Under the pieces are notes generated by a model that was not told where the DNA came from, did no database searches, and worked only from the letters and a program-made list of their open reading frames with translations. From Nitrospinales bacterium (GTDB lineage: Bacteria > Nitrospinota > Nitrospinia > Nitrospinales > VA-1), in assembly GCA_965249625.1 (NCBI GenBank), contig OZ252246.1:2450236-2514235 (forward strand): a stretch of DNA of 64,000 nucleotides, in the 5' to 3' direction. The translations under genes and the position numbers were made by a program. The number at the start of each line of letters is the position of its first letter. Position 1 is the stretch's first letter. This document shows, one piece after another, positions 9,655-58,778 of the stretch.

Positions 9655-11358
9655 ATGAAAATATCCAAGGAATTGCTAGAGCAAATGGAAAATGATGATA
9701 AAGAGGAACAGGAAGAGCTAACCGCAACCCAGATCGCCGCCTATGAAGAGATGGAAGGCTATTTTAACGAGAGTCTTGGCCGCTTTAAAGCGTCGCAGAT
9801 CATCATGGGAAAGGTGATCGCCATTTCCAACGGACTGGCCACCATCGATGTCGGCTTTAAATCAGAAGGCATGGTCTCGCTTTCCGAATTCCCTGAAAAC
9901 GGCAAAAACCTGCAGCTGGATGAAGAGGTTGAGGTCTTTCTTGAGAAGGTTGAAGACAACGATGGCAATGTAGTCTTATCCAAAGAAAAGGCCAATAAAA
10001 TTAAAATCTGGGATGACCTGGTTCAAACTTATGAAGCGGATGAAACCATTCGGGGTACTGTGGTGGCCAAAGCCAAGGGCGGATTAACCGTCGATATCGG
10101 ACTGAAAGCCTTCCTGCCTGGTTCCCAGATCGACCTTCGCCCGATTCGCAATCTGGAAAAACTGCTGGGCGAAAAATTCGACATGAAAATCATCAAGATG
10201 AATAAAAAACGCGGCAATATTGTCCTGTCGCGAAGAATTCTCCTTGAAGAACAACGCAAACAGATTCGCGAAGGCACTCTGGAAAAAATGAGTGAAGGCA
10301 GCCTCATTGAAGGTATCGTTAAAAATATCACCGAGTACGGAGTGTTCATCGACCTGGGCGGGATTGACGGCCTGCTTCATATCACCGACATGTCATGGGG
10401 CCGGGTCAACCATCCCTCCGAAATGTTTTCCATTGGTGACAAAGTCACGGTCATGGTTCTCAAGTACGATAAAGAAAAAGAGCGCGTCTCGCTCGGTCTC
10501 AAACAAACCAGTGCCGACCCATGGGTGGATGTCGATTCCAAATACCCGGTCAGCACCCAAATTAAGGGACGGGTGGTCAGCATCACCGACTATGGCGTGT
10601 TTGTAGAACTTGAAAAAGGCATTGAAGGGCTGGTCCACATTTCCGAAATGAGCTGGAGCCGTCACGTCAAACACCCGAGCAAAGTGGTTTCGATCGGAGA
10701 TGAAGTGGAAGCCATTGTGCTGACCCTTGATAAAGATAAAAAACGGATTTCTCTCGGCATGAAACAAATCGAGCCCAACCCGTGGGAAAAAATTGAAGAC
10801 AAATATCCCATTGGTTCTGAAGTTGAGGGCACGGTTCGTAACCTGACCGACTTTGGCGCCTTTGTGGAACTGGAAGACGGCGTGGATGGACTTATCCATA
10901 TTTCCGATTTGAGTTGGAAAAAAATCAAACATCCTTCTGAAATCCTGAAGAAAAAGGACAGAGTCACATCAGCCGTGCTCAGCATCGACAAGGAAAACTG
11001 CCGCATCTCTCTTGGGGTTAAACAGTTGCAACCCGACCCATGGGATGATATCGCAGCCAACTATCCTATCGGCACCGGAGTCACCGGCAAGATCATCAAG
11101 GTGACAGGATTCGGAGCGTTCGCGGAATTTGGCGACGGATTAGAAGGCCTGATTCATGTTTCGCAACTCAGTTCTAAAAAGATTACAGATCCTGAGTCTG
11201 TGGTGAAGGTGGACGATGAGATCAAGGCAAAAGTGATCAAAGTGGATACCTCTAACAAAAAGATCGCTTTAAGCATTAAAGCCCATACGGAAAACCTCGA
11301 CATTTCGCAGATCGAAAAAGAACAGGTAGACCTGGAAGGCTTTAAAGAAGAGGAGTAA
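9655..11358 (+). CDS. rpsA: 30S ribosomal protein S1
   Basis: Six tandem S1 domains (repeated G.V..I...G.FV.L..G..GL.H.S patterns), 567 aa. Confidence 0.95.
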   Translation: MKISKELLEQMENDDKEEQEELTATQIAAYEEMEGYFNESLGRFKASQIIMGKVIAISNGLATIDVGFKSEGMVSLSEFPENGKNLQLDEEVEVFLEKVEDNDGNVVLSKEKANKIKIWDDLVQTYEADETIRGTVVAKAKGGLTVDIGLKAFLPGSQIDLRPIRNLEKLLGEKFDMKIIKMNKKRGNIVLSRRILLEEQRKQIREGTLEKMSEGSLIEGIVKNITEYGVFIDLGGIDGLLHITDMSWGRVNHPSEMFSIGDKVTVMVLKYDKEKERVSLGLKQTSADPWVDVDSKYPVSTQIKGRVVSITDYGVFVELEKGIEGLVHISEMSWSRHVKHPSKVVSIGDEVEAIVLTLDKDKKRISLGMKQIEPNPWEKIEDKYPIGSEVEGTVRNLTDFGAFVELEDGVDGLIHISDLSWKKIKHPSEILKKKDRVTSAVLSIDKENCRISLGVKQLQPDPWDDIAANYPIGTGVTGKIIKVTGFGAFAEFGDGLEGLIHVSQLSSKKITDPESVVKVDDEIKAKVIKVDTSNKKIALSIKAHTENLDISQIEKEQVDLEGFKEEE

Positions 11359-21162: not shown

Positions 21163-22179
21163 TTAATGGGCTGAGTAACGGAACATCTGGTTGACACATT
21201 GGAGGGCGCGATTCTGAGTTTCCGGGTCAAGGGTGATGGTGTTTTCGGGACCAGGGTTTTCGAGGACATTGAGTATATCTTCCAAAGAATTGGACTTCAT
21301 ATATTTGCAGAGTGTACAACTTCCGGCAAAGGTTTTTTGCGGGAACTCGGATTGCAGAACACCGGTCAACCCGCATTCGGTGAGCAAAAAGAACGAGTCC
21401 CGCTTCGATTCACGCACATGGTTGAGCATCTGGCTAGTACTTCCCACATAATCGGCCTTGCCCACCACTGAAGAACTGCATTCGGGGTGAACGAGAATTT
21501 CCACACCCTCAAAGTTTCTCCGCACTTGGTCTATGCTTTCCGGCTGATATTCTTCATGAACGTAGCAGGTGCCATCCCAGAGTTGGATATCCTTATTCAG
21601 GCCCTTGGATTTGAAATGGTTGATCATATTTTCACCCATGAGCCGGTCGGGCAGAAAATAAATCTTGTTATTGGAAATTTTTTCAATGATAGTGTAAACA
21701 TTCGAAGAGGTGACGCACACATCACACTGGGCTTTCACCTCGGCGGTCGTGTTGATGTAGCAGACGAATGTGTGATCGGAAAACTCTTTGCGGAGCCTTA
21801 TGACATCTTTCGCCGTTATGCCGTCGGCCAGGGAGCAACCACCATTGGGATTGGGATCGAGCACAGTTTTTTGAGGATTGAGAATCTTGGCGGTCTCAGC
21901 CATAAAGCGCACCGCCGCAAAAACGATGATATCGGCATTGGATTCCTTGGCTTTTTTCGACAGGCCATAAGAGTCGCCGGTGTGATCGGCGACACTATAA
22001 TAAATTTGCGGCGCGACATAATTATGCACGAGGATGATGGCATTCTTTTCGCGCTTGAGGTCTTCAATCTTTCTGATGGTGGGGAGCAACAGCTCGCAAT
22101 TTTCCTGAGTGAACCGGCAAATAGGATTGCCCGCCTGAATATCTTTAAGCTTTTCGTATAATTGTTCTGCGGTAACCAT
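21163..22179 (-). CDS. nadA: Quinolinate synthase
   Basis: 338 aa with typical NadA blocks (ILVHNYV, FMAETAKIL, CSLAD, VCYINT, HPEC). Confidence 0.9.
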   Translation of the reverse strand: MVTAEQLYEKLKDIQAGNPICRFTQENCELLLPTIRKIEDLKREKNAIILVHNYVAPQIYYSVADHTGDSYGLSKKAKESNADIIVFAAVRFMAETAKILNPQKTVLDPNPNGGCSLADGITAKDVIRLRKEFSDHTFVCYINTTAEVKAQCDVCVTSSNVYTIIEKISNNKIYFLPDRLMGENMINHFKSKGLNKDIQLWDGTCYVHEEYQPESIDQVRRNFEGVEILVHPECSSSVVGKADYVGSTSQMLNHVRESKRDSFFLLTECGLTGVLQSEFPQKTFAGSCTLCKYMKSNSLEDILNVLENPGPENTITLDPETQNRALQCVNQMFRYSAH

Positions 22180-22183
22180 TTTT

Positions 22184-22528
22184 CTAGCCCGGCGGCCAGT
22201 TCATGGCACGACCGCCTAAAAGATGATAATGAATATGATACACCGACTGCCCGGCCCCGGCACCACAATTGACCACCAGCCGAAACCCTGATTTATCGAG
22301 TCCCCTCTCCTTCGCCAGTTGGTTTGCCACACTGATCACCGAACCCATCAACGTATGATCCTTCTCCTCGACATCCAGCAAGGTAACCTTATGGATTCGG
22401 GGGATGATCAGGATATGCGTAGGAGCTTGCGGGTTGATATCATTAATCGCGAACAAGGTGTCCGACTCATAAACCTTATTTGAAGGGGTAGTCCCCTCGC
22501 TGATTTTGCAGAACAGGCAATCACTCAT
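22184..22528 (-). CDS. HIT-family (histidine triad) nucleotide hydrolase
   Basis: CLFCKI start and the HIHYHLLGG histidine triad. The ATG at 22528 overlaps the pafA-like stop by 8 nt. Confidence 0.85.
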   Translation of the reverse strand: MSDCLFCKISEGTTPSNKVYESDTLFAINDINPQAPTHILIIPRIHKVTLLDVEEKDHTLMGSVISVANQLAKERGLDKSGFRLVVNCGAGAGQSVYHIHYHLLGGRAMNWPPG

Positions 22529-24023
22529 AAGGTTTTTTTCCGCGTCGCTCCGGGTTTCCCATATTCTGTTTATTTTCCTGGTGGGGGAGAGAATCAAACT
22601 GCTCAAGATGTTCTATGATTTCTTCTCTATAGGAGATGAATGGATCGAGCATCAGAAACGGTTCGTCAGTTTTACTCAGGCGAAATCCGATCCAGTCTAT
22701 GAGATAACCCATGTGAGAATGCTGGTTCATGAGCCTTTTAACAAGCTCTCCCCGGCCATGTGCCCGGGTTCCTCTTGGAGGATTGACTTTTGAGAAGTCG
22801 ACCGCCTCATCGGTGGTCTTGCGGTAACCATCGCCACTGGCTTCCAACCCCCAGAACAAACCGGTTTCCTTATTCAGGTTATGGTATTCCAGATCCAGGC
22901 TTTTGAGCCAGGGGTCATGCCATTCCAGGTTTTCTTCGTTTCTAAACTCGTTGAGCATCCAATACTTGCTGGCCCAGTCCACTCGGCCGATCACCGCTTC
23001 CGGTCCTTTGGGTAAATCGGTCAAGACCGATTCCCAGCCCTCCAGAATCCAGTCGGTCTCCCGGTTTGTCCCAGCCAGATGTTCCTTACAGGTATTTAAA
23101 ATATCCCATTGCAGTTCCAAAGCGGTGGAAGATTTTCCCGAAGCCAGTTTCACCTCCCATTTAAAATCCGGATCGCGAGAAATAGAACGCATGGCAAAAA
23201 CCGAGTCCGCAAGAATCCATTCCCGTTTGGCGACCCCCAACTGCATGATTTCCAGCACGAGCGTTGTGGTTCCCATCTTCATGGCGGTGGCAAACTCACT
23301 CATCGTCGAGTCACCGACCAAAAGATGAATGCGCCGGTATTTGCTCGGGTCCGACAATGGTTCATCGCGGGTGTTGACAATCGCCCGGTTATATTGCACC
23401 CACCGATAAGATTCATTGGGAATGTGGTCAGCCCTTTGTGACAGCTGAAAGCTCACCTCATCCCCCTGGTTTTCATAAGGTGTGATGCCATCCCAATCCC
23501 GAGACGGGTGGGGATCGCAGGAACCGATGCGGCCCGCACCGCAATAAATCAGTCGAGTAGTTAAAAAGGAAGAAAGCAGTTTCAGGTTGTCGCGCTCATC
23601 GAAAGGGAATCCTCTACCGACCAGATAATTCTCGTGGCAGCCGAACGTCGCGCTGGTTTCAAGATCTACATTGTTCTTGATAAATGAAACATGATCGGCC
23701 CAGCCCAACTCCTCCACCGCTTCCTGGATCAGCGTGTCGCCGGCGCGGTCAAAAGTCACCAGGTCAACAAGATTGGAACACTCCGGAGAGGCGTATTCCA
23801 AATGCCCCATATCGAGATACAAGCGCCCACCGTTAAGCAGAAACCCGCCGTTACCGGGGGGCTCATCGTTAGCACGGTAGTGAAGGTCCAGCACACCATG
23901 ATTTTTTGAGAAAACATGGTTCTTGACCTTGTTGGCCGCTTCTATCGAATCGAGAGGGAACTCCGCATCATTTTTGATCAGTAGGCCGTATTCCGTTTCG
24001 ATGCCGTAGATGCGTTTTTTCAT
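22521..24023 (-). CDS. pafA: PafA-like Pup/UBact ligase (carboxylate-amine ligase family)
   Basis: IYGIETEYG start and NGGRLYLDMGHLEYASPEC, like PafA and without the long insertion seen in the other paralogue. Also FQLSQRADH and NTRDEPL...YRRIHLLVGDS. Confidence 0.75.
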   Translation of the reverse strand: MKKRIYGIETEYGLLIKNDAEFPLDSIEAANKVKNHVFSKNHGVLDLHYRANDEPPGNGGFLLNGGRLYLDMGHLEYASPECSNLVDLVTFDRAGDTLIQEAVEELGWADHVSFIKNNVDLETSATFGCHENYLVGRGFPFDERDNLKLLSSFLTTRLIYCGAGRIGSCDPHPSRDWDGITPYENQGDEVSFQLSQRADHIPNESYRWVQYNRAIVNTRDEPLSDPSKYRRIHLLVGDSTMSEFATAMKMGTTTLVLEIMQLGVAKREWILADSVFAMRSISRDPDFKWEVKLASGKSSTALELQWDILNTCKEHLAGTNRETDWILEGWESVLTDLPKGPEAVIGRVDWASKYWMLNEFRNEENLEWHDPWLKSLDLEYHNLNKETGLFWGLEASGDGYRKTTDEAVDFSKVNPPRGTRAHGRGELVKRLMNQHSHMGYLIDWIGFRLSKTDEPFLMLDPFISYREEIIEHLEQFDSLPHQENKQNMGNPERRGKKPYE

Positions 24024-24042
24024 TTCAGGGTGCCTTTAATAT

Positions 24043-24843
24043 TCAACCCCGTTTTAAAGAAGACTTGCACAGTTTCGCCAGATCCTTATCGTTCAAAAAC
24101 TGGTACCCCGCCTCGGTGACCAATGCCACGGTAGGAAAAATTTCATCTTCCGGACGGGCTTTGCCGGTTGCAGAATCAAACTGCGCCGCAGTCTGCAAAA
24201 GCCGGATGGCCAAGGTGACCGCATCGCTTTCCGACCTTTCTACCAGGGGCTTATCTCCCCAGAGGTCTTCATGTTCCAGAATTCCCCGAATGGTCGGCGA
24301 ACCAGAGCCGGTCGCGGTATGGGTGCTGATCCTGAAATCGGCTCCCAACATATCGTAAAAATGTATCGCCGCCTTTTTGGATTTCAAATCGTAAGTGGCA
24401 AATATTGGACTCACCGCTCCCAGCCCCTGCACCGCCATCCCGACATTCTCTTTCAGCAGTTTTGATAAGGCGCGGATTTTCCCTTCTACACTCATGGTCT
24501 GCATCTGTGACCGCCGGTAGTATTCAAAATTATGCGTGAGAACCCGTGCCATCTCGAAAGCCGTAGCAGGAACCCCGGCAATCGCCATGAGCGTATAATC
24601 GTCGATGGGAATGACCTTGTCGCAACGTTCATACATGATACTGTTGCCCGCCGTGGCCCGTCGGTCGCCGGCAACAATCACGCCATCCTTAAAGTGAAAG
24701 GCAAGAACCGTAGTGCCCTGGGTTACTGTAATCCCACTTGGCACCTGCGAAGAATCGACGCGGGTACGCCAGCGATAGCCGGATTTTTCCAGTAGCTCGA
24801 AAAAATCTCCGGGCGAAGTATGAGCATCGGCTTGAAAACTCAT
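24043..24843 (-). CDS. prcB: Proteasome beta subunit with propeptide
   Basis: TQG/TTVLAFHFKDGVIVAGDRRAT: an Ntn-hydrolase catalytic Thr after a propeptide of about 43 aa. ATGA overlap with the modifier gene stop. Confidence 0.85.
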   Translation of the reverse strand: MSFQADAHTSPGDFFELLEKSGYRWRTRVDSSQVPSGITVTQGTTVLAFHFKDGVIVAGDRRATAGNSIMYERCDKVIPIDDYTLMAIAGVPATAFEMARVLTHNFEYYRRSQMQTMSVEGKIRALSKLLKENVGMAVQGLGAVSPIFATYDLKSKKAAIHFYDMLGADFRISTHTATGSGSPTIRGILEHEDLWGDKPLVERSESDAVTLAIRLLQTAAQFDSATGKARPEDEIFPTVALVTEAGYQFLNDKDLAKLCKSSLKRG

Positions 24844-25016
24844 TGACCGGTTCTCTGTTTGTATTTTTCAGATTGTTTCGGGTCCACCTTTTTCATCCGC
24901 TTCAAAAGATTATCCTTTCCCGGCCGTGAAGGTTCCGGGCTGGAAGGGCCGGAATCATCGCGATCTGGACTGGTTTCTTTTTTTTCTTCCCTTCTCAGGG
25001 GATCATTCATTTCCAT
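24840..25016 (-). CDS. 58-aa Pup-like / UBact-like prokaryotic ubiquitin-like modifier (hand-found, below the ORF-track cutoff)
   Basis: AAGGAG lies 8 nt upstream of the ATG at 25016. Product is MEMNDPLRREEKKETSPDRDDSGPSSPEPSRPGKDNLLKRMKKVDPKQSEKYKQRTGQ: disordered, charged, with a C-terminal Gln. It sits between the proteasome subunit genes. Confidence 0.7.
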   Translation of the reverse strand: MEMNDPLRREEKKETSPDRDDSGPSSPEPSRPGKDNLLKRMKKVDPKQSEKYKQRTGQ

Positions 25017-25066
25017 GGGATCAACTCCTTTTGTTGCCAGGTCGTTTCTGCCTTATCACCCGAGCA

Positions 25067-25801
25067 TTAACCGACCGATGATTTTAACTTACCAATCTCT
25101 TCTTTCGTAAGCACTCTGTAAATGGCTCTTCGCTCCACCTTCCCAGATAAAACGGCAGCCTCAAGATACCATTGATCTAAAGCCTCTTTCAAAGTCTTGG
25201 GCATATTTTCATCGTCTTCTTCCTGCTTTCTACTTTCATCCCAAAGGCGGCAGGTTTCCTTTAAAGCTTTATTCAGAGGAAACGTCGCAAAGGGGGTATC
25301 CTGAATTTTTTTCTGCACCTCCTCCACGACTTTTTCATTACCGGCGATAACGGTTCCATTTTTAAATGTTTCCCAATGTCCATCATAGTTCACACGGAAA
25401 AAGTGGGGATAGCCATCACCGTCCAGTTCAGCAAGAAGAAGGCGAATGATATAAGGAGCCCGTTGGATTTCCTCAAAGTTCTGTTTGAGTGCGGGAGCGA
25501 TGCCAAACTGTAGCAACCTTGCCAATGTCACATCTTGAGCCGAACGATTGAATCCTTCCAGATGCGCCATATCCAAAAGCGTCATGCGCAACCGTTCCAC
25601 ATCAGCAGGGTGACCCACGCCGCCCAGAGCGATGCGGTCATAGACTTCGAATATTTTGCCCGGCTGGGGAGCAAACCCCATAATCAGCACCCCTTCATTG
25701 AAAGGAACCGATAATACCGGCTGACCCATTTTCAGCTTTTCCTGAACATAGCTGTGGCGGGTGGAAACCGCCTCCATCCAGCGATACGGCTCTTCAAACA
25801 T
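25067..25801 (-). CDS. prcA: Proteasome alpha subunit
   Basis: Bacterial PrcA pattern (KIFEVYDRIALGGVGHPADVERLR...DVTLARL...YIIRLLLAEL) with no catalytic Thr context. Confidence 0.85.
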   Translation of the reverse strand: MFEEPYRWMEAVSTRHSYVQEKLKMGQPVLSVPFNEGVLIMGFAPQPGKIFEVYDRIALGGVGHPADVERLRMTLLDMAHLEGFNRSAQDVTLARLLQFGIAPALKQNFEEIQRAPYIIRLLLAELDGDGYPHFFRVNYDGHWETFKNGTVIAGNEKVVEEVQKKIQDTPFATFPLNKALKETCRLWDESRKQEEDDENMPKTLKEALDQWYLEAAVLSGKVERRAIYRVLTKEEIGKLKSSVG

Positions 25802-25884
25802 TTTTAACTGTCCCCTCTAATCCCATAGCAAGTTTTCCCTTAAAGTGAGGATACTTAAAAACCCCTCACTCTTCCTCTGTTGTT

Positions 25885-27345
25885 CTAAACCAATTGTTCG
25901 CTGGAGTTGAGAATCTCTTCAACCTCTTCGGAGCCGATGACTCCAGTCAAATCGAGAATCTCTCCGTTCATAAACTCAACTCCGGTCCAATGAATACTTT
26001 TTATTTTCTCCGCTCCTTGAGCCACCGCCTGCCCTCTTATCTGGGCGCGGGTTCCTACCGGAGGCGACTCAACAGCCCGGGCGATTTCTTCTTCACTGAG
26101 CAGGGAATAAACATCCCCCTCCTGCTGCAATCCCAGATACAATCCGCGATCAGGGTCCAGATTATGGTATTCCAAATCCAGGCTCTTGAGCAAGGGGTCA
26201 TCCCAGCCAATGCCCTCGGACTGCATGAACCCGGTAAATAGTTTTTCCTTGATCGCCCAGTCAATGCGATCCGAAAGTTTTTCCGGGCTGTGCCGAAGTT
26301 CATCTAGTGTCTTTTCCCATTCCGCAAGAATCCAGTCCCACTCGCGATCCTTTCCGGCAAAGGCTTTTTCTACCGCCTCTAAATACGCTTCCTGAATCTC
26401 AAGAGCCGTGATAGTACCACCAGTCTTGCGACGTAAAACTGCAGTTTTGTCGAGAGACACTCTTAACACATCGGCCACTGGGTCCGCCAATTCCAAATGG
26501 AGAAGTTTCTCCCCACGGGCGATCAGATTGAGAACCAGCGATGTACTCCCCACCTTCAGGGCCGTGGCATAAGCGGACATATTGGCATCGCCGAGAATTA
26601 AATGCAAACGCCGATACCGACTGCTCACCGCATGCGGTTCGTCCCGGGTATTGATGAGGGGACGCTTCGTCATGGTCTCGATGCTTAAAACTGTCTCGAT
26701 AAAGTCGGGCCGCTGGGCCAACTGCAATCCTTGAAAATCACTAGTGTTTTCCGATCCCACTTTTCCCGCCCCGGCATACAACTGGCGCGTCACCAGAAAA
26801 GGAGCCAGTCCTTTTACCACATCTTCGAAGGGAGTTGCTCTGGGGATGAGATAGTTATCATGAGTTCCATAACTATGGCCGCTGTAATCGGTATTATTCT
26901 TGAACACCTGAAGCGGTTTGCCCTCCAGCTCGCGGTTGCGAATGGCCACGCATTCGGCGACAATCCGCTCGCCCGCCACATCATGCGCCACCAGAGATAA
27001 CACCGACCGGCATTCCGGGGTGCTGTATTCCGGATGAGTATGATCATTATAAAACCGGGCACCATTTGTCAAAACCCGGTCGCACTTCATATCTAAATAA
27101 GAATAAGGCCTTTTACGATCTTCGGCGCAAAAAGCATCTTCTTCTTCATCCTGAGCCAAAGACCCCACCCGAAACCCACGCATATCCAGATGCGAGTTCT
27201 CCCGCGAGTAGGCCCATTTGCCAAAAACACTTTTGCGCTCGCAGGCCTTTAGGAGTTTCATGGACTCTTCAACCGGGTCGGAATTTTCCATATCTTCCCG
27301 GACTATCCCATACTCGGTCTCCATACCCAGGAGAGAAACACTCAT
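25885..27345 (-). CDS. dop: Dop-like depupylase/deamidase
   Basis: GMETEYGI start. A long acidic insertion precedes LTNGARFYNDHTHPEYSTPEC (Dop-loop-like). Also VFKNNTDYSGHSYGTHDNYL, LQLAQRPDFIE and INTRDEPHA..SRYRRLHLILGDANM. ATGA overlap with mpa. Confidence 0.8.
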   Translation of the reverse strand: MSVSLLGMETEYGIVREDMENSDPVEESMKLLKACERKSVFGKWAYSRENSHLDMRGFRVGSLAQDEEEDAFCAEDRKRPYSYLDMKCDRVLTNGARFYNDHTHPEYSTPECRSVLSLVAHDVAGERIVAECVAIRNRELEGKPLQVFKNNTDYSGHSYGTHDNYLIPRATPFEDVVKGLAPFLVTRQLYAGAGKVGSENTSDFQGLQLAQRPDFIETVLSIETMTKRPLINTRDEPHAVSSRYRRLHLILGDANMSAYATALKVGSTSLVLNLIARGEKLLHLELADPVADVLRVSLDKTAVLRRKTGGTITALEIQEAYLEAVEKAFAGKDREWDWILAEWEKTLDELRHSPEKLSDRIDWAIKEKLFTGFMQSEGIGWDDPLLKSLDLEYHNLDPDRGLYLGLQQEGDVYSLLSEEEIARAVESPPVGTRAQIRGQAVAQGAEKIKSIHWTGVEFMNGEILDLTGVIGSEEVEEILNSSEQLV

Positions 27346-28964
27346 ATGATAGACCTGCGAATCGTATTTTCGGTGGTCTTATCCGATTCGCTGGGCTTTC
27401 TTACCCGCACAACATTTTTTGACTCCATATCCAAAAGTTGAAGCCAGTCTTCCATATTGGATTCTGCAGGAAGCAGGCTGCCTTCCTCAAATTCAGCCTC
27501 CAGTGAAACAATAAGATCGTCCACCGTCATGCACAGCGTTTCACCCTGAATCGCCCGCTCAATGGCTCTCTCTTTAGCGCGTTTCATGATTCCCTCAATG
27601 ACCGCGCCGGAAATGAAATCGTTCCAATACAGTTTTTTGGTGCCGCCGCTTCTCAAAGTCAACACCAGCACTTCCTGTTCCGAACTGCGGTCAAACAAAC
27701 GATCCAGAAAAGGTTCGGCCATGGCGTCAAAATCTTCATGTTCGCGGGGCAGCCCTTCTTTCAGATAAACACGCAGGATAGCCTTAGACTCTTCGCGGTT
27801 GGGGCGCGACACTTTGATCTTCCTGTCAATTCTTCCAGGCCGGATGACGGCCGGATCGATCAGGTCGGGCCGGTTGGTCGCCAGAATCACCACCGTTTCG
27901 CGAAGGGACTGGATGCCATCCATCTCCGCGCAAAACATGGGAACCACCGTGTTGCTGATGTTCGATCCGCGCCACGCCTGTCGGATTCCCAGAATGGATT
28001 CCGCTTCATCTATGAATATGAAAGGAATCTGACCTTTTTCTTTATAGTCCCGGGCTTTCTTGAAAATTTCGCGGATTTTACGTTCCGATTCCCCCAACCA
28101 CATATTGAGGATCTCCGGTCCTTTGACATGAATGAACCGGCCCTGTAGTTCGGAATTTTCCTGTTCGGAAAGTTTGCGGATCACTTCGGTGAGAATCGCT
28201 TTTCCTATGAGAGTTTTTCCGCAACCCGGAGGACCATAGAACAAAAATCCTTTGGGCACCTGATATTCCATCTGGCTCAGAATTTCTTTGTGCAGGAGCG
28301 GATATTCGAGGACTTTGCGCACCTCTTCTTTTACTTTTTCCTGTCCGCCCACCTGTGACCATTCCACATGTTCATAATCGTCTTCGACCAGAGTGCGGGA
28401 CTCGCGCTTAGAAAGTTTGCCTAAAATAACCCTTTGGTTACTGTCGAGAAAAATTTCTTCCCCCTCTTTCAGCCCGGTTTCATCCAAGCCATCTCGGACC
28501 AGAACAATCGCCTCGGTATTGCCGGTCGCCGCCTGCACCAGCCATTGCCCACCAGCAAGCTTTCCGGCAATTTTTGCAAGTGGCCCCTGAGTGGGGAAAG
28601 GTAGCCGGGCAATCACCACAAATCCTTCATTCAGCGCGACCTGATCACCGGTTTTCAATCCCTCATTTTCCGCCAGTTCTGGGACGACCGCGGCTTGGTA
28701 TTCCGTGCCCCCGGAAACCAGACGCACCAGACCGTCCTCCCCCTGGCCCAGAATCGTGCCAATGCGATGGGCGGGAGACTTCAACTTTTCAATGGCTTCC
28801 TCCAAGGTCTTGATTTTCAATGCATACTGCTGGGCAGACTGCTGGGCCTGAAACAGAGCATCCCTGAGATCAAGAATCTTTTCCTGCAACTGTGGTCGAT
28901 CCTGGGTTTCATTTAAAACCTGGTCGATCAACTCTACGATATGGGTCGGGTCTCCCATGAACAA
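27342..28964 (-). CDS. mpa: Proteasome-associated AAA+ ATPase (Mpa/ARC homologue)
   Basis: N-terminal coiled coil, an OB-like region, Walker A GPPGCGKT and Walker B FIFIDEAE. First gene of the proteasome cluster. Confidence 0.85.
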   Translation of the reverse strand: MFMGDPTHIVELIDQVLNETQDRPQLQEKILDLRDALFQAQQSAQQYALKIKTLEEAIEKLKSPAHRIGTILGQGEDGLVRLVSGGTEYQAAVVPELAENEGLKTGDQVALNEGFVVIARLPFPTQGPLAKIAGKLAGGQWLVQAATGNTEAIVLVRDGLDETGLKEGEEIFLDSNQRVILGKLSKRESRTLVEDDYEHVEWSQVGGQEKVKEEVRKVLEYPLLHKEILSQMEYQVPKGFLFYGPPGCGKTLIGKAILTEVIRKLSEQENSELQGRFIHVKGPEILNMWLGESERKIREIFKKARDYKEKGQIPFIFIDEAESILGIRQAWRGSNISNTVVPMFCAEMDGIQSLRETVVILATNRPDLIDPAVIRPGRIDRKIKVSRPNREESKAILRVYLKEGLPREHEDFDAMAEPFLDRLFDRSSEQEVLVLTLRSGGTKKLYWNDFISGAVIEGIMKRAKERAIERAIQGETLCMTVDDLIVSLEAEFEEGSLLPAESNMEDWLQLLDMESKNVVRVRKPSESDKTTENTIRRSII

Positions 28965-29206
28965 GTCCTTTATTTTCGTTGTGAACTCTCAATTGTATGA
29001 ACAAAAAATTTTATAAATCAAGTCAATTTTCTCAAAGGTTTAGTAGAGAAAACCTTGTCATTATATTAGGATGGAAGCTTCTATTGATTATTGTCCTGAA
29101 AAACTTTCACTCAAATTTTTCGTATTCCAGAGCCCGGCAAAATCCCAGGTGGTGCCAAGACCACCTTTAACGTGAAAGTGATTTCTGACAACAAGTTTTT
29201 GATTTT

Positions 29207-30633: not shown

Positions 30634-31557
30634 ATGCCAAAACCATGGCAGGGAAATAGTTTATTGAACCGAACCCGATTATCCGGGTTTATCCTTTTAG
30701 CGCTGGGCATTCACATAACATCGGTGATCGCACACATGGCGATCCCCGCCGCGAAAGAAAAAGTAAAGGGACCTCCCCCGATCCGGGTGAAATATATTGA
30801 GCCGGAGAAACCCCCGCCGCCCTCAAAAATTGAGAAACCCAAAAACAAAGATCTGCTGGCAAAATTTGACAGCCGGGCCCATTCCAATATCAAAAAGAAA
30901 ACTGCAAAAACCTATCAGCGCAAAAAAACCGTGGTGCCGAAATCGAAAGGGTCGGTGGGCAAAACAGGTACCGCGCCCGTTCGAGAAAAGAAAGTCGCAC
31001 GCAAATCTCACAAACGTGCCGCGATTGAGCCGGGAAGAAGACTCCTACCGGAATCAGATATTGGAAAATATAAATCCGTTATCAGGAAAAAACCCAAACC
31101 CACGGCGTCCTCCGCCAATCCCAAGGCAGGCACAGGTAGCACCTTGGCTCTTCTGGACGGGTTTGACCCCGAACCCTTCGCATCGCTCAGCACAGAGGAT
31201 CTCGAAAACATTGATGATGACGAACCGGTTTCCCTCGATACAACAGAAGTCAAATACGCTTCTTACTTCGCGAGGATCAAGCACCAGATTGAACGGGTGT
31301 GGATTTATCCCACCGAGGCCGCACAACGTGGTATCAGTGGCGATCTCACGTTGACGTTCAGGATTTCCAAGGACGGCAACCTTCTTGGGGTGCAGCTGTT
31401 GGACCGGTCAGGCTATGAAATTCTGGATGTGGCCGCACTCAAAGCCGTGAAGGAAGCGGCTCCCTTTTATCCCTTCCCGGCAACCATTGACCGGGAGAAG
31501 TTATCCATCCAGGCCAATTTCGTTTACACCTCCCAATTCAAATCCCTAGCCCCCTAG
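30634..31557 (+). CDS. TonB-family energy transducer
   Basis: N-terminal TM anchor, a Pro/Lys-rich spacer (EPEKPPPPSKIEKPK) and a C-terminal TonB_C domain (YPTEAAQRGISGDLTLTFRISKDGNLLGVQLLDRSGYEILDVAALKAV). Confidence 0.75.
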   Translation: MPKPWQGNSLLNRTRLSGFILLALGIHITSVIAHMAIPAAKEKVKGPPPIRVKYIEPEKPPPPSKIEKPKNKDLLAKFDSRAHSNIKKKTAKTYQRKKTVVPKSKGSVGKTGTAPVREKKVARKSHKRAAIEPGRRLLPESDIGKYKSVIRKKPKPTASSANPKAGTGSTLALLDGFDPEPFASLSTEDLENIDDDEPVSLDTTEVKYASYFARIKHQIERVWIYPTEAAQRGISGDLTLTFRISKDGNLLGVQLLDRSGYEILDVAALKAVKEAAPFYPFPATIDREKLSIQANFVYTSQFKSLAP

Positions 31558-34605: not shown

Positions 34606-34863
34606 CTACACTCCATCTGATTCCGGCGAGCTAAAACTACAGAAGCTTTTTGAACCTCGGTCAAGGTCAATCCCGCTTGGCGAACGATTGCCCCCCATGG
34701 TGCCTTTTGCTATTTCTTTATGATTAGGGATGGTTAACCTACGATGAGGTGGATCGGGTTTTCTCAGAATAAGATGGCTTCCGGTTTGGCGATCCAGCAC
34801 ATAACCCGGTTTCCGGAAAACCTTGCAGGCTTCTTTTCCGGAAAGAACGGGGAATTGACTCAA
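34606..34863 (-). CDS. hicA: HicA-family toxin; its C-terminus appears frameshifted at a C6/G6 run
   Basis: SGKEACKVFRKPGYVLDRQTGSHLILRK...TIPNHKEIAKGTMG is HicA-like. The canonical end (AIVRQAGLTLTEV) is readable only in another frame, beyond 34691-34696. Confidence 0.6.
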   Translation of the reverse strand: MSQFPVLSGKEACKVFRKPGYVLDRQTGSHLILRKPDPPHRRLTIPNHKEIAKGTMGGNRSPSGIDLDRGSKSFCSFSSPESDGV

Positions 34864-35072
34864 ATGGGAATCTCGACAATTTCTTCTTCAATCGGTGGGG
34901 GAATCGGCTCATCGTGTTCCTTTAAGCTATCCAGATATCCTTTGACAGCATCCTGAATATTTTCCAGAGCCTCAGAACGGGTGCTCCCCTGTGAAACACA
35001 ACCCGGCAAAGACGGACATTCCGCCACAAACACACCCTCTTCATCTTTTTCTATTAGAATTCTGAACTTCAT
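34860..35072 (-). CDS. hicB: HicB-family antitoxin (UPF0150)
   Basis: MKFRILIEKDEEGVFVAECPSLPGCVSQGSTRSEALENIQDAVKGYL is the canonical HicB N-domain. 4-nt overlap with hicA. Confidence 0.75.
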   Translation of the reverse strand: MKFRILIEKDEEGVFVAECPSLPGCVSQGSTRSEALENIQDAVKGYLDSLKEHDEPIPPPIEEEIVEIPI

Positions 35073-40379: not shown

Positions 40380-43070
40380 TTATGAAATAACGTCAAAACA
40401 AATTAACCTTAATCTTTCCTGATCGAGTGATAACGCATTTGATGAAAATGCGGTATAGTCCTTTTCAAAATCTGGATTAAAAGTTTGCCTAAGGTTATAC
40501 AATGAAACCATCAACAGCTTCACATTTTCCTGGATTTGAAAATCTTTATAAAATTTCCGTAGTTCTTTGACCTGAACATGAAGCATAGGCTGATTCAAAA
40601 ATTTAATCAGTTCTATGCACTGTGTACGCTCTACATCCGGGTGATTGATGTAACCTTGAATGGTTGTGGCGATGGTTTGCTGGATGGGATCAACGGTTCG
40701 CGGAGCGGCTTCTAATGATTTTTGTTCTTGATAGGAACATAATATATCATCCATGATTTTTTCTTGCAGGTCAAAAATTGAATGGAATATCTCTTGCTCT
40801 ACAATTCTCGGGGTTTCCTTATCGCATGCTATTAAATTAGCGATCACATAGCGATTATCAATAATTTTATTCTCTTTAAGATCAAAATATTTCCAGAAAT
40901 GGAATACCTCATTGGCTTGGCTGTTGGTTTGAAAATAGAAAAATACTCCCTTTGATCCAGGTCGAATGAGACCAGAGTGAATTCCATCGGGTAAAGTTTC
41001 CAACATTTCCTGCCCGCCCGAATCTAGTAATCCCTGCAATTGTTGCTTGAGAAATTCGTTGCTGGCCAGTTCCGTAAATTGCTCCTCTTCTTCGATCACC
41101 GAACCGTCCTCATCCATAATTCTTCTAAGAGTGTTAAAGTTTCTTGGATTTATGGTTTCCCCGAGAACGCTGGCATCCAGAAATCCCGCTTGATCGATAG
41201 ATGCAATCTTTGTTGTTAAACTTTCTACAAGTCCTAACAGTCTTTCTAATCCTTCATCGGGAAACATATTAAAAATGGAAAGAGTATCAAACTCCGTCCC
41301 AAGACGGTCAATTCGGCCTGCCCTCTGGATCATCCGGGTAGGATTCCAGTGAAGGTCGTAATTTATTAGATGACCGCAATCCTGAAGATTTTGCCCCTCA
41401 GACAACACATCTGAAGAAACTAAAATATCTATTTCTTTATCTGTCCCTATCCAGTCCTCTTTTTCATTAGCCTTTGGAGCAAAACCCTGAACCAGTTTTT
41501 CTTTTTCCTTTGGGTTAGCACCACTATCCATTCTACGAATTGCCGCATTGTCCAGTTGCTCAAGAAATTCCACAGCAGAGGGGTTTTTAAAATCACCAAT
41601 ATTTTTAAATAAATACCGGACTGTATCTTTATAGTGACTGAAAATCAGGACTTTTTTGCCACGGAGTTCCCCTGACAAATGCTCCTTAAGGCATTCCAGT
41701 TTTACGTCTTTTTCAGGCCCGATATCTTTTATGCGCTGCCAAATATTGGTTAGAATATCTCGGTCCTGTTGCAATGCATCATGAAGCCTCCTCAAATCAT
41801 ATAAAGAAGGATCAATCGTTTCCATTCCTTCTAATATATGTTTGGCCTCTTCGCTGGCATCCAAATCCTCAGCCAAGGATGATGGAACCGCATCATCCTC
41901 TTCATCTTCCCGTTCGAGGTATCTCAAGGCCTTATGAAATTCACTGCTTCTCAATAATTTCCCATCTAAAACGTAACTTTCAAAAGTTTTGAGAAATGCC
42001 AAAGCTCGTCGAATACTGATCCGAAATGCTTCTATACTGGACTCAAACCGCTTCAGGTAACGACTTTTAAAAATACCCACTAAAGCCTGTTCGCGGCCAA
42101 CTTCAAACTCATCGATTTCAGCCCCTTCTTTCTTATAATTCTCCAAATTGTATTGAGCGAATCTGAGACTATCGACACCCGATACTATATCCTCATAGAT
42201 TCCGGCATAAGTTGCTTCCAGGTTATATTGAATAGTTCGTAATCTTCGTTTAGGAAAATGTATTTTTTTGCCATTAATGGTGGCATCGGGATAAGCTCTG
42301 CGAATAAAAGGGCGCGTTCTGCGAACGACAATCTCTTCAAGAAGGTTGAAAAGGGCAATGGCGCTATTTCCCATCCTTGAGTCTCTGCGGACTTGCAAAA
42401 AATATCTGCGCAAATCGCCAATGCCACAGGCCGAGAAATAACTTTGGTCCCCACGGGTAATAAGACAAAGCTGGTTGTAAAGATCAAACAAATCGTTGTT
42501 GATGGGAGTTGCCGTCAATAGAATTATTTTTTTCCTGGCCCCTTCACGGCCTCGCCCACCATTAGCGCCTAAAACAAGTTCCAGATTTAAATATCTATTA
42601 GACCCCTTATTGCGAAAATTGTGGGATTCATCGATTAAAATAACATCTACATCTCCATAGGGTTCTGGGTCAAACTCATCTCTTCCCAAAGCTTCTTGAG
42701 ATAAAATTTTACCCGCAATGGAAGCATGGTTTAATTCACGCTCCCACATCTCCCTTAAAGCGGCGGGACATACGATAAGAGCCTTTTGCCGGAGATGGTA
42801 AGCGAAATCTTCCAAAAGCTTTTTCCCGATCCAGGTTTTTCCAAGGCCTACAGAATCGGCAATCATTACACCGTCATATCGCAATAAAATCTTTCTGGCT
42901 TTCTTGACCGCATCCTCCTGGAATTCGGCCAGTTCCACCGCGGACCGGGTGCCCGCTGACTCTTCTGAAGAAAGGTCTCCCTGAAAATACTCATAAAGGG
43001 CCTTCATATAGACTTGATAGGGAGTGTATTCGGTTCGGCCAAACTTGGAATCGTCCAGAAGCTGGATCAA
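40380..43070 (-). CDS. SNF2-family helicase/translocase, the downstream part of a split HKD-SNF2 gene (frame stays open up to ~43279)
   Basis: Motif I DSVGLGKTW, motif II ILIDESHNFRN, motif III LLTATPINN, motifs V/VI LSEGQNLQD...NYDLHWNPTRMIQRAGRIDRLG. The upstream in-frame sequence LEQWYQRQWDDSVDF continues the PLD-domain protein. Confidence 0.85.
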   Translation of the reverse strand: MIQLLDDSKFGRTEYTPYQVYMKALYEYFQGDLSSEESAGTRSAVELAEFQEDAVKKARKILLRYDGVMIADSVGLGKTWIGKKLLEDFAYHLRQKALIVCPAALREMWERELNHASIAGKILSQEALGRDEFDPEPYGDVDVILIDESHNFRNKGSNRYLNLELVLGANGGRGREGARKKIILLTATPINNDLFDLYNQLCLITRGDQSYFSACGIGDLRRYFLQVRRDSRMGNSAIALFNLLEEIVVRRTRPFIRRAYPDATINGKKIHFPKRRLRTIQYNLEATYAGIYEDIVSGVDSLRFAQYNLENYKKEGAEIDEFEVGREQALVGIFKSRYLKRFESSIEAFRISIRRALAFLKTFESYVLDGKLLRSSEFHKALRYLEREDEEDDAVPSSLAEDLDASEEAKHILEGMETIDPSLYDLRRLHDALQQDRDILTNIWQRIKDIGPEKDVKLECLKEHLSGELRGKKVLIFSHYKDTVRYLFKNIGDFKNPSAVEFLEQLDNAAIRRMDSGANPKEKEKLVQGFAPKANEKEDWIGTDKEIDILVSSDVLSEGQNLQDCGHLINYDLHWNPTRMIQRAGRIDRLGTEFDTLSIFNMFPDEGLERLLGLVESLTTKIASIDQAGFLDASVLGETINPRNFNTLRRIMDEDGSVIEEEEQFTELASNEFLKQQLQGLLDSGGQEMLETLPDGIHSGLIRPGSKGVFFYFQTNSQANEVFHFWKYFDLKENKIIDNRYVIANLIACDKETPRIVEQEIFHSIFDLQEKIMDDILCSYQEQKSLEAAPRTVDPIQQTIATTIQGYINHPDVERTQCIELIKFLNQPMLHVQVKELRKFYKDFQIQENVKLLMVSLYNLRQTFNPDFEKDYTAFSSNALSLDQERLRLICFDVIS

Positions 43071-43258
43071 CTGATCCTTGAAATCAACCGAGTCATCCCA
43101 TTGCCTTTGGTACCATTGTTCTAAATCAATGATGGCACGCGCTCCGACTTCACTTTTTATCAGTTGTCGATTGGAATCTTTTATTTGAGGACTGGGACTT
43201 TGATCGGCGAGCCAGGAGACGGCTTGTTGCGCATGAATATCATTTGCCTCGGAAGGGT

Positions 43259-43780
43259 CTAATAAAAAATCTTGTGGGCCAAATTAAGTTCGCGGTTAGA
43301 AGTTAAACCAGGAGTGGTAAAATTTGAGGAACCAACAATGGCCACAACAGGGCGAAATCGCTCGAAGAGCATTTGCTGACCAGGCCGGTCAGAATAAAAC
43401 AGCCAGCATTTGGCATGAAGAAATCCCTTATCATACATCTTGACTTCTACCTTCTGGTTTTGAAGGTAGGCAATCAGGTCTTCAATGAGTTTTAGAGTTT
43501 TTTCCTCAAATGGTAGAATCTCCAAATCTTTTTTTATAAGACCCTGAACATTATCTGGTCCTGGCTTAAGCCCTACTTGCTCACCAGAAGTAGGTTCGGC
43601 TCCAAGGAGCAATCGGAAAGAACCCAGAGAATTGAGGCCATTTTCCAAAAGCCCAAATCCCCCGACCGTAAAATAAGCCGTCGCCACATCCAGAGACTGG
43701 CCTTTATATTCTTCAAGAAGCCCGCTCAGAACCTTAGCGAGAATATGCTCTTGGTTATCTATGACGTATGGGATTTTCAA
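43259..43780 (-). CDS. Single-HKD phospholipase-D-family nuclease domain, the upstream part of the split HKD-SNF2 gene
   Basis: FLHAKCWLF...VGSSNFT (the HxK...GSxN motif). It ends at a TAG immediately after a T6 run (plus-strand A6 at 43264-43269). Confidence 0.8.
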   Translation of the reverse strand: MKIPYVIDNQEHILAKVLSGLLEEYKGQSLDVATAYFTVGGFGLLENGLNSLGSFRLLLGAEPTSGEQVGLKPGPDNVQGLIKKDLEILPFEEKTLKLIEDLIAYLQNQKVEVKMYDKGFLHAKCWLFYSDRPGQQMLFERFRPVVAIVGSSNFTTPGLTSNRELNLAHKIFY

Positions 43781-43861
43781 AGTATTCTATTTATCCTCAA
43801 GCCATTTTCCCTAGTGTTTCATAGCATAGAACTGATATTTCAAATAAAGCGAACCTCATTT

Positions 43862-44875
43862 TTACTTAATCCCCCATCGCCGACTACCTGTGCGGGTTGG
43901 AGAACCACATTGACTTAGCAATTGTCTATATCGAGCTGGTTCAAGCGATTTTTTTATTACTTCAAAGTAAACTCTCCCACCGGAACGTCTTCGAAAAAGA
44001 ATTAAACAGGGCCTATCCCGATAATCCAGTTCGTGAATTACTAAACGAGTCGTGTGATTGGAGTATCGTGTCATAGTCAGGTGGTGATCTTCCTTAGTTG
44101 CTCGGTTTTGTAAATGCACAGTGATACTTCCCCCTTGAAGATTAGGCAGACCAAAAAATGGTTTAGCTGCTTCCATTGGTATTTGTATTTGACTACCACC
44201 AGCCCCTGTTTCTCTATCCATAATCTCAAGGATCAGATCCCCCTTACGAGCTCCTCCAAAACCCCTAGAACCTGTTCCATTACCACCTCTTCGCTTACTC
44301 CAGGTAAATGTTGAAGCAACACGCGCCTCTGCTCTTTTAACCCCAAAGTCCTCCTTCTCTTTCCTGTAACTATCAAGTAGTGAAGAAGTTAGGGTTTCAC
44401 TGGATGATTCAATCATGCTGTGCCACATTAAAAGGCTTTTATTAGGATTGGAAAAATTCATTACAGTCGCGAATTCAATATTGTGCTTAAGTCCGTCGAG
44501 AGAAAGATTATTGCTTCCAACAATAATAGTTCCAGAATCATTAAGGACAAACCAAACAACTTTGGGATGGAAGATTCCATTATAATGCACTAGAAGTTTT
44601 ACGGTAACTCCATCTGTTTGCATATTTGCCAAGGCATTTGGGTCTGTAATTCCATGATCTGTACCAACATATGCTATGATTTCCCTGTTATTTTTTCTCT
44701 TTAACCAACTTTTTGCAGCTTTTCTGACCAAGCTCCATCCTGGATTCGTTACAGCATAAAAATACAAGCGTAATTCTGAGGCTTCCCGGTCTGAAGATAA
44801 TTTTTGAATAAACGTGTCATGAAAATTGGTAAGGGTCCAAGTTGCACCCTGGGCAGTTGGAAGAAAGTTTTTCAT
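43862..44875 (-). CDS. Single-HKD PLD-family endonuclease (NgoFVII/BfiI-like architecture) with an uncharacterised basic C-terminal domain
   Basis: FHPKVVWF...IIVGSNNLS HKD motif in the N-terminal half. ATGA overlap with the methyltransferase stop (44872-44875). Confidence 0.7.
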   Translation of the reverse strand: MKNFLPTAQGATWTLTNFHDTFIQKLSSDREASELRLYFYAVTNPGWSLVRKAAKSWLKRKNNREIIAYVGTDHGITDPNALANMQTDGVTVKLLVHYNGIFHPKVVWFVLNDSGTIIVGSNNLSLDGLKHNIEFATVMNFSNPNKSLLMWHSMIESSSETLTSSLLDSYRKEKEDFGVKRAEARVASTFTWSKRRGGNGTGSRGFGGARKGDLILEIMDRETGAGGSQIQIPMEAAKPFFGLPNLQGGSITVHLQNRATKEDHHLTMTRYSNHTTRLVIHELDYRDRPCLILFRRRSGGRVYFEVIKKSLEPARYRQLLSQCGSPTRTGSRRWGIK

Positions 44876-53152: not shown

Positions 53153-53182
53153 CCGCTTCATATTAACTAATTGTATCTTGCT

Positions 53183-58700: not shown

Positions 58701-58778
58701 ATGTGGGAGTTTTTTATGAATTGGTTCATTGGCCTTTTCAATATGGATATCGCTTAAATGAATTATTTGGATTTTCAT
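55725..58778 (-). CDS. 1017-aa fusion protein: calcineurin-like metallophosphoesterase + P-loop NTPase + ~550-aa helical C-terminal region (candidate single-gene defence/conflict system)
   Basis: All MPE motifs are present: D10-x-H12 (LSDIH), G47-D48 (FTGD), GNHD 88-91, HH 199-200 and GHEH 227-230. Walker A is GERFSGKT (386-393) and Walker B-like is VAIIDN (457-462). The gene is strikingly AT-rich relative to its neighbours. Confidence 0.8.
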   Translation of the reverse strand: MKIQIIHLSDIHIEKANEPIHKKLPHLINAIANVDPEVKGCLLIFTGDISFSGKKEQFDIAEEFFFELLCEVESRFKDIPVKTIFVPGNHDCDISNENIVRDTIIEKIKDKKTFKKELVDIVIEPQTNFFNFIEQVEDQNIKNKIYWTREFEFEQEKIIINCFNTAWISTKKEQQGTLLFPVEITLKSPPNSLIISVFHHPYSWLESNNSRVFKGMVEESSDLILTGHEHVPGSFSKEFTHSSRNEFFEGGVLNDSKNSLNSSFNVVLIDFKNRKQKKLFYEFENKICGYKEIREKSTEWLEFKRNPVLVKNTFQFGKNISEFIEDLGTTYSHPRKSHVSLDDIFVFPDLRCLEGGDLSGDSNPVKYISSEEVPDYILSNNLLVVGERFSGKTALTKQAFSIFRKNGLVPIYFDGSRFNEHLLKDGKFEKYIEECFVEQYDNTDWGKYRQLEKEKKVAIIDNVHLFEVNDAGKVKIVEKLRQYFTKFFLVADDSLNFEKLKYSKKEENPFKDFINLEIMPFKNYLRCEMVEKWLILGQEYSCNGQEFIREVDRIDRLLSSVLASRMFPAVPVFILTLLQQIEANKKHILISGSYGELFEFLISAKLRESNIGKVDLVTLNTYLSELAYILFENESTAIGKEEFEEFHNSHNKKFALNLNFGKVVEHLCFATILSEINNLFCFKYQFSFYYFLAKYLADHFHEDEIKNIFNKIALGLHREDYANIIILLSHFSKDPLILETVLEQTNGTFKQYPPCDFSEDFKFLDGLDDKIDVELINLEDTSPREVRQELNKAKDEIEQRSSSEVSSDSDSSDFNRATKALQVSGQILRSYAGSLESAKKIDLANACYALGMRAIKSFSVLLESSLDDFIESFYEEIKKENSKADEKRIKKLIRGLIYFLSQIAIISFIKKVSSSVGSPNLRLTFAEILKSDGNIGNRFVDISIKYDHFQSFPTSEVKGLIKELKNEPFNNRILQILTSMHFLLFEEDYQLRQQVCGWLGIPFKKTSTLTAKKEKVR

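Follow-up and report, generated by a model that had tools for sequence, protein, structure and literature searches.

A UBact-proteasome gene cluster with a permuted gene order in a marine Nitrospinaceae bacterium

The Pup-proteasome genes of Mycobacterium tuberculosis lie at Rv2115c-Rv2097c, and the 20S proteasome of Rhodococcus erythropolis comprises two alpha-type and two beta-type subunits. The Pup-like modifier UBact was reportedly named by Lehmann, Udasin, Livneh and Ciechanover in 2017 (BBRC 483:946, cited in PMC12751074), who are also said to have set out the UBact-proteasome loci of Gram-negative phyla. Here we describe a cluster of six genes in a 64,000-nucleotide (nt) stretch of DNA from a Nitrospinales bacterium (contig OZ252246.1), referred to below as the window. 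The cluster is a complete copy of the known UBact-proteasome system and represents no new kind of biology. Homologues of Dop and PafA had been noted in Nitrospinae (PMC7947786), and public annotation already names the modifier in Nitrospinota ('ubiquitin-like protein UBact [Nitrospina watsonii]'), so that an earlier sequence-only reading of the window had over-rated the novelty of the locus. That reading had itself listed Nitrospinae among the phyla with reported clusters. A single-copy homologue in planctomycetes is also mentioned in PMC7947786. The permuted gene order, its evolutionary trail and a contrast between ATPase tails are incremental additions. The six genes, with lengths in amino acids (aa), were as follows.

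27342-28964, minus strand: mpa, Mpa/ARC-type proteasomal AAA+ ATPase, 540 aa from TTG
25885-27345, minus strand: dop-like gene, predicted deamidase/de-conjugase of the Pup_ligase family, 486 aa
25067-25801, minus strand: prcA, putative 20S proteasome alpha subunit, divergent, 244 aa
24840-25016, minus strand: UBact, Pup-like modifier, 58 aa
24043-24843, minus strand: prcB, 20S proteasome beta subunit, 266 aa
22521-24023, minus strand: pafA-like ligase gene, Pup_ligase family, 500 aa

The locus was interpreted, with a probability of about 0.85, as the UBact-proteasome system of marine Nitrospinaceae and the diderm counterpart of the actinobacterial Pup-proteasome. Under the same interpretation, the six genes form one tightly packed operon that runs on into a HIT-family hydrolase gene and nadA in this lineage. 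Gene content, protein families, catalytic residues, taxonomic and syntenic distribution, and the remnants of a second beta gene (prcB') in relatives were all observed directly.

Comparisons were made with 80 genome loci across phyla, 80 metagenomic Nitrospinaceae loci and the locus of N. watsonii. These were annotated with profiles built from the window proteins, and individual loci are cited by L number. Like the UBact loci of Gram-negative phyla, the cluster carries the same six components, the same UBact C-terminal block and ATPase tail type, and ligases of the same clades. It differs from them in having prcA-UBact-prcB in place of UBact-prcB-prcA, in that UBact does not adjoin dop, and in the joining of pafA to the HIT gene by an 8-nt overlap. 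With the actinobacterial Pup system it shares homologues of PafA and of Dop (with its Dop loop), an AAA ATPase with coiled-coil and OB domains, a beta subunit that has Thr1, and a small disordered tag with a G-[Q/E] end. Unlike that system, its tag ends in RTGQ and belongs to a different Pfam family (the Pup tag ends in GGQ or GGE), its ATPase ends in SII and not GQYL, and its genes are contiguous in one operon. The R. erythropolis arrangement is approached by three relatives (L003, L111 and L114) that encode two beta subunits, both with Thr1 intact, and one alpha subunit. The window, in contrast, has a single beta gene, and the second beta gene is decaying in several relatives.

Components of the cluster

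The six co-oriented open reading frames (ORFs) that the sequence-only reading had placed at 22521-28964 were all recovered there on the minus strand, and each matched its assigned family. The two ATGA overlaps that it described are real (27342-27345 between mpa and dop; 24840-24843 between UBact and prcB). The other intergenic gaps were 83 nt (dop-prcA), 50 nt (prcA-UBact) and 19 nt (prcB-pafA). The true start of mpa is likely the ATG at 28958, which yields a protein of 538 aa, because the gene of a 95%-identical relative (L002) was called at that length.

The 58-aa modifier proved to be a bona fide member of the UBact family. It scored 71.8 bits against Pfam PF20513 (cut-off 27.8) and 73.8 bits against the NCBIfam equivalog NF033388 (cut-off 35), above both curated cut-offs. 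Its C-terminus, …KYKQRTGQ, is placed immediately at the stop and conforms to the R-[T/S]-G-[E/Q] end. The C-terminal block LLKRM+KVDPxQxxxY+QR[TS]G[EQ] was common to UBacts across phyla. Of the 62 UBact ORFs scored from metagenomic Nitrospinaceae, 60 shared the RTGQ end of the window UBact; one Nitrospinaceae UBact ended in RTGE, as did most Nitrospirota UBacts. The gene is preceded by its own AAGGAG ribosome-binding site and is adjoined by its five partners (homologues of Mpa, Dop, PafA, and the 20S alpha and beta subunits) in a non-actinobacterial diderm. The protein collection held no 100% match to the window UBact. In the relative L002, the UBact ORF (10332-10508) was left uncalled by the gene caller used on the public contig, and automated annotation may miss this small ORF.

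The 58-aa ORF might alternatively encode a Pup look-alike that serves as a non-covalent cofactor of the proteasome or ATPase or in assembly. Such a role would agree with the literature search, which turned up no experimental UBact conjugates. It is at odds with the invariant C-terminal G-[E/Q], which is kept right at the stop codon across phyla, and with the constant co-occurrence of UBact with both ligase-type and deamidase-type Pup_ligase enzymes. A Gln or Glu terminus is, moreover, exactly what Pup chemistry demands (PMC2588565; PMC3511204). A cofactor role was accordingly judged very improbable, and the ORF was treated as the modifier of the system.

Two members of the Pup_ligase family flank the 20S genes and UBact. 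The Dop-like protein scored 508 bits against Pfam PF03136. Its best NCBIfam model was TIGR03688 (Dop; 430.4 bits, under the equivalog cut-off of 492.3) over the PafA model (353.8 bits). It aligned over its full length, including the Dop-loop region, with solved Dop (5lrt/4b0r; E 2e-95), and carries an FYNDH motif (the conserved Asp in the Y-x-D-H strand). The PafA-like protein, whose gene follows the 20S genes and closes the cluster, scored 419 bits against PF03136. It reached 318.3 bits against TIGR03686 (PafA; cut-off 551.3) and 303 bits against the Dop model, a margin of only 15 bits. Its residues 3-476 aligned with residues 10-473 of solved PafA (4b0t; E 1e-65), whereas solved Dop aligned to it only from residue 53. 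By these matches to solved structures both genes encode full-length Dop/PafA homologues, as had been claimed, and the possibility that they are generic glutamine-synthetase-like ligases was ruled out.

The separate Dop and PafA labels rest on a loop insertion, profile preference and gene position. The Dop-like protein has 81 aa between GxETEY and NGxRxYxD, and the PafA-like protein 51 aa; in Pup-type proteins this segment measured 65-75 aa (Dop) and 37-39 aa (PafA). The Dop-type insertion was present only in the mpa-adjacent paralogue. Trees of the Dop and PafA families were built by neighbour-joining with four distance corrections and bootstrapping. Four clades, comprising two paralogues each of UBact-type and Pup-type, were monophyletic at approximately 100% support. 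The UBact-type clades were separate from all Pup-type Dop and PafA sequences, including those of Pup-type loci from Poribacteria and Nitrospirales.

Both types of system were seen within single phyla. Poribacteria (loci L042, L045, L048, L052 and L059 versus L024 and L026) and Nitrospirota (L039 and L068 versus L008-L017) each hold UBact-type and Pup-type loci, and the types are therefore not partitioned by phylum. In the Pup-type loci of these two phyla the tag ends in GGQ or GGE, and the ATPase tails, where inspected, in x-Y-L.

The beta subunit scored 105.3 bits against the Pfam Proteasome family, from residue 40, and 163.6 bits against TIGR03690 (cut-off 191.9). A 43-aa propeptide precedes T44, the predicted mature Thr1 (…TQG|TTVLAF…). 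The catalytic residues Asp17 and Lys33 are present in the translation as D60 and K76, respectively. The alpha subunit scored 30.2 bits against the Pfam Proteasome family and 60.4 bits against TIGR03691 (20S_bact_alpha; E 1.7e-16, residues 13-233; cut-off 139). Its best solved-structure matches were Rhodococcus and M. tuberculosis PrcA chains. From these profile and structure matches, the 244-aa protein was called a putative alpha subunit that appears divergent from the actinobacterial equivalog.

The ATPase matched the Pfam families AAA (111.6 bits, residues 241-386), Prot_ATP_ID_OB_N (46.3 bits, 67-128) and Prot_ATP_ID_OB_C (28.6 bits, 136-184). Its best NCBIfam model was TIGR03689 (Pup-system proteasome ATPase; 380.3 bits), and this score was below the cut-off of 504.75. 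The N-terminus, read from the sequence only, is helical and coiled-coil-like.

Gene order and a second beta gene

The canonical order mpa-dop-modifier-prcB-prcA-pafA was found in 19/19 informative UBact loci of other phyla (Nitrospirota, Verrucomicrobiota, Armatimonadota, Poribacteria and Bipolaricaulia) and in most of the Pup-type loci retrieved. It was also found in 28 complete (plus 8 partial) Nitrospinaceae loci, including N. watsonii, in which Dop was at most 69% identical to that of the window. The permuted order dop-prcA-UBact-prcB-pafA occurred in the window and in 26 marine Nitrospinaceae loci with a Dop identity of at least 73%. That the alpha-modifier-beta order departs from the actinobacterial one had been pointed out from the sequence, and the survey bore this out; the order also departs from nearly all other UBact loci. 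It is a shuffle confined to one Nitrospinaceae sub-lineage. The order of the Pup locus has been called 'rigidly conserved' (PMC3511204) and the Pup gene 'invariably' adjacent to a PafA-family gene (PMC2588565); the window order breaks both the pattern and the rule. No description of the permuted order or of its evolutionary trail was found in the literature searched. In N. watsonii, UBact overlaps dop by 10 nt. The spacing between pafA and the HIT gene was -11 to +12 nt in the permuted clade versus 37-261 nt in canonical-order Nitrospinaceae.

The extra beta gene prcB' was found between dop and prcA in nine permuted-clade loci with approximately 76% Dop identity. L003 (8380-9180), L111 (8470-9285) and L114 (2308-3108) have an intact copy whose processing site reads GTTV. 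Decaying copies, in which Thr1 was changed to Arg and frameshifts were present, were found in L108, L109, L110 and L142. In L115, L116, L118, L119 and L121, an N-terminal remnant of approximately 100 nt with an in-frame stop was detected by tblastn (E 1e-8 to 1e-13) within a 208-nt dop-prcA spacer. These copies and remnants document, for at least one sub-lineage, how decay and deletion turned dop-prcB'-prcA-UBact-prcB into dop-prcA-UBact-prcB. In a neighbour-joining tree of beta subunits, prcB' was placed within the Nitrospinaceae betas with 100% support.

Deletion of the upstream prcB' would thus be the last step towards the permuted order. For the earlier step, the comparative data point most readily to an ancestor, shared by a single clade of marine Nitrospinaceae, in which UBact-prcB(-prcA) was duplicated in tandem and the outer copies then disappeared. 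This would have produced a transient two-beta state, dop-prcB'-prcA-UBact-prcB, which would still survive in some lineages and in others was inactivated and deleted. Whether the order arose in this way, as an operon-level circular permutation by duplication and loss, was considered an even call. The same even weight was given to a separate proposal, taken up below, that the tyrosine-free ATPase tails imply docking unlike that through GQYL/HbYX.

The same order would result if prcA had moved in front of UBact in one transposition and if one sub-lineage had afterwards, and independently, gained prcB' by insertion or duplication. The loci bearing prcB' nest in a 73-76% sub-clade of the beta tree beside loci without it, and the sub-clade of the window (Dop at least 81% identical) has no prcB' remnant in spacers of 16-159 nt, as would be expected if prcB' arrived late. 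However, prcB' is far from the local prcB (307 vs 444 bits to the window beta) and branches deep. A recent local duplication is hard to reconcile with a copy so divergent and so deep-branching. In addition, prcB' shares the motif AFHY(E/K)DG with the betas of canonical-order Nitrospinaceae and lacks the AFHF typical of the downstream prcB in the permuted clade, and the remnants and decaying copies record repeated loss, not gain. Transposition was rated the less likely course, and duplication with loss was preferred for the origin of the order.

Metatranscriptome contigs 95-99% identical to the window covered parts of mpa, dop, prcB and pafA, and two such contigs spanned the prcA/UBact junction. 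By sequence matching, they would fit natural expression of the permuted operon, for which they make a thin case.

Predicted pathway and the ATPase tail

Every biochemical step proposed here would follow the Pup pathway by homology (PMC3511204). UBact would be made with a C-terminal glutamine (…RTGQ). The Dop-like enzyme would deamidate UBact-Gln to glutamate and probably also strip UBact from substrates. Pup-Gln in mycobacteria requires a deamidase (PMC3511204), and an RTGQ-ended UBact would need one for the same reason, that the tag is Gln-terminal. The PafA-like enzyme, with ATP, would activate the gamma-carboxylate of the glutamate and join UBact to target lysines. A hexameric Mpa/ARC-type ATPase would then recognise the tag via its N-terminal helical region, unfold the substrate and feed it into the 20S core, where one alpha and one beta subunit, the latter predicted to be catalytically competent, would degrade it.

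The C-terminus of the window ATPase (27342-27420) ends …RRSII. Among UBact-type ATPases, 81/81 ended in x-[I/V/M/T]-[I/V] and had no tyrosine (loci L002-L163), in contrast to Pup-type ATPases, of which 18/22 had an x-Y-L end. No description of this contrast was found in the literature searched.

Such tails could mean that tagging is mainly regulatory, or that substrates do not pass straight from the ATPase into the 20S core. Non-degradative roles of pupylation in actinobacteria without a proteasome (PMC3511204) lend this some precedent. The 20S genes, however, lie inside the operon, with UBact translationally coupled to prcB; alpha and beta genes are kept in essentially all complete UBact loci; and the beta active site is intact. 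The hydrophobic C-terminal tail is itself conserved and may still enter the alpha-ring pockets. A mainly regulatory system was regarded as improbable, and delivery of tagged substrates to the 20S core remains the favoured function.

Several observations weigh against the interpretation as a UBact-proteasome system or against parts of its proposed history. The window ATPase is without the C-terminal GQYL docking motif of Pup-type Mpa. All five large proteins scored under the cut-offs of the NCBIfam equivalog models, whose training drew on actinobacterial Pup systems; judged by these scores, they are relatives of the equivalog families rather than members as curated. In the ligase trees, bootstrap support was 69-81% for joining both UBact-type paralogues versus 18-31% for the orthology topology. 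The literature search found no experiment on any UBact system. The metatranscriptome contigs are short, and DNA carry-over is possible. As to gene order, no prcB' remnant was detected by tblastn in the 83-nt dop-prcA spacer of the window. In the beta tree, prcB' lay on a long basal branch and did not pair with the downstream prcB as its sister, a placement that falls short of demonstrating the duplication step.

Host, surroundings and implications

The proteins 89-91% identical to the Dop-like protein were labelled Nitrospina sp. or Nitrospinae bacterium, the UBact homologues were labelled Nitrospinaceae, including the cultured N. watsonii, and the nearest genome loci to the window were those of Nitrospinaceae. 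The labels of close homologues and the nearest loci thus uphold the view that the host is a diderm, here a member of Nitrospinaceae (Nitrospinota), and not an actinobacterium. The features adjoining the cluster were as follows.

22184-22528, minus strand: HIT-family hydrolase gene, Pfam HIT 83.6 bits
21163-22179, minus strand: nadA, quinolinate synthase, Pfam NadA 347 bits
28965-29206, minus strand: divergent intergenic region between mpa and the 436-aa upstream gene, AT-rich, 242 nt
30634-31557: TonB, confirmed

The gene run continues past 22521, where the ATG of the HIT gene lies within the 3' end of pafA, and nadA begins 4 nt after the HIT gene. The HIT gene is probably co-transcribed with the cluster. 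It is not part of the conjugation machinery and is a conserved neighbour within Nitrospinaceae only. Upstream, the 436-aa gene and TonB form a divergent pair. The arrangement TonB / 436-aa gene / cluster / HIT / nadA was conserved across Nitrospinaceae, down to 65% Dop identity, and N. watsonii shares the neighbourhood. The G+C content (GC) of the six genes (0.46-0.53) matched that of neighbouring sequence (0.47-0.52). With its flanks conserved and its composition matched, the locus is resident and not a recent import.

It has been proposed that Nitrospirae, Nitrospinae and other groups received pupylation horizontally from Actinobacteria (PMC7947786), and the cluster could on that basis be a recent acquisition from Actinobacteria. 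The even composition and the synteny kept on both flanks speak against this, as does the position of both ligase paralogues in the UBact-type clades, apart from the Pup-type. Taken together, composition, conserved flanks and the tree effectively refute a recent transfer, the least credible of the alternatives considered; a transfer, if there was one, was accordingly ancient and does not concern this genome in particular.

The region 28965-29206 likely holds the operon promoter. Promoter-like hexamers were located at 29035-29008 and 29021-28992 by consensus scan only, and across the region as a whole promoter-like sites were not enriched over shuffles. Nor were consensus promoter or terminator sites enriched over shuffles within the cluster. 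The dop-prcA spacer (25802-25884, minus strand, 83 nt) contains the inverted repeat AGTGAGG…CCTCACT, with a 7-bp stem and a 13-nt loop, which was not picked up as a terminator in the terminator scan. An Rfam scan of the whole 64-kb window gave no non-coding RNA match. Sponge metagenomes contain sequence related to 22100-29200 of the window.

Of the neighbouring genes that the sequence-only reading had cited as signs of a diderm, TonB was present. A Sel1-repeat protein was likewise confirmed (63094-63924), but the signal peptide and lipobox were not found at the N-terminus of the called ORF. HigBA was not found. An Xre-type helix-turn-helix gene (2478-2882) and a HicA toxin/HicB antitoxin pair (34606-35072, minus strand, 4-nt overlap) were present instead, and the latter may be the pair that was taken for HigBA.

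Other features of the window included several candidate defence genes. A complete MmeI-family type IIG restriction-modification enzyme with all five MmeI Pfam domains is encoded at 3030-5807 (plus strand; PADLOC REase_MTase_IIG, 1188 bits), in a stretch of lower GC (0.42). A block resembling a defence island lies at 40380-49158 (minus strand). Its genes encode a SNF2 helicase, for which HKD+Snf2 and DrmD were the best PADLOC models, and a 1428-aa Eco57I/TaqI_C methyltransferase that resembles DrmMI or type IIG enzymes. Two PLD-like ORFs also lie there, one with a weak likeness to DrmC. The block resembles a partial class 1 DISARM system, and no DrmA or DrmB was seen in it. At 55725-58778 (minus strand) is a gene for a 1017-aa protein with a calcineurin-like phosphoesterase and a STAND NTPase (candidate defence family PDC-S60, 267 bits). 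GC in the window is at its lowest here (0.33 at 56-58 kb), and this composition suggests horizontal acquisition of the gene. Directly downstream of smc, at 53171-54535 (plus strand), is a gene for a 454-aa leucine-rich-repeat protein (LRR_6, 127 bits; no PADLOC match), a eukaryote-like repeat that is unusual in a free-living bacterium.

The locus provides a clean, complete, single-operon example of a UBact system from the marine, nitrite-oxidising and ecologically important Nitrospinaceae. Both comparative points are modest and will mainly concern specialists in bacterial proteasomes and operon evolution. The tail contrast is class-wide and leads to the prediction that docking on the 20S core differs between UBact-type ATPases and Mpa. 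The series of canonical, two-beta, decaying second-beta and permuted loci records the rearrangement of a 'rigidly conserved' order without loss of a component. If the proposed permutation is true, UBact would have exchanged translational coupling to dop for a strong ribosome-binding site of its own, the operon would have been compacted onto HIT-nadA, and the stoichiometry of tag to enzyme could change.

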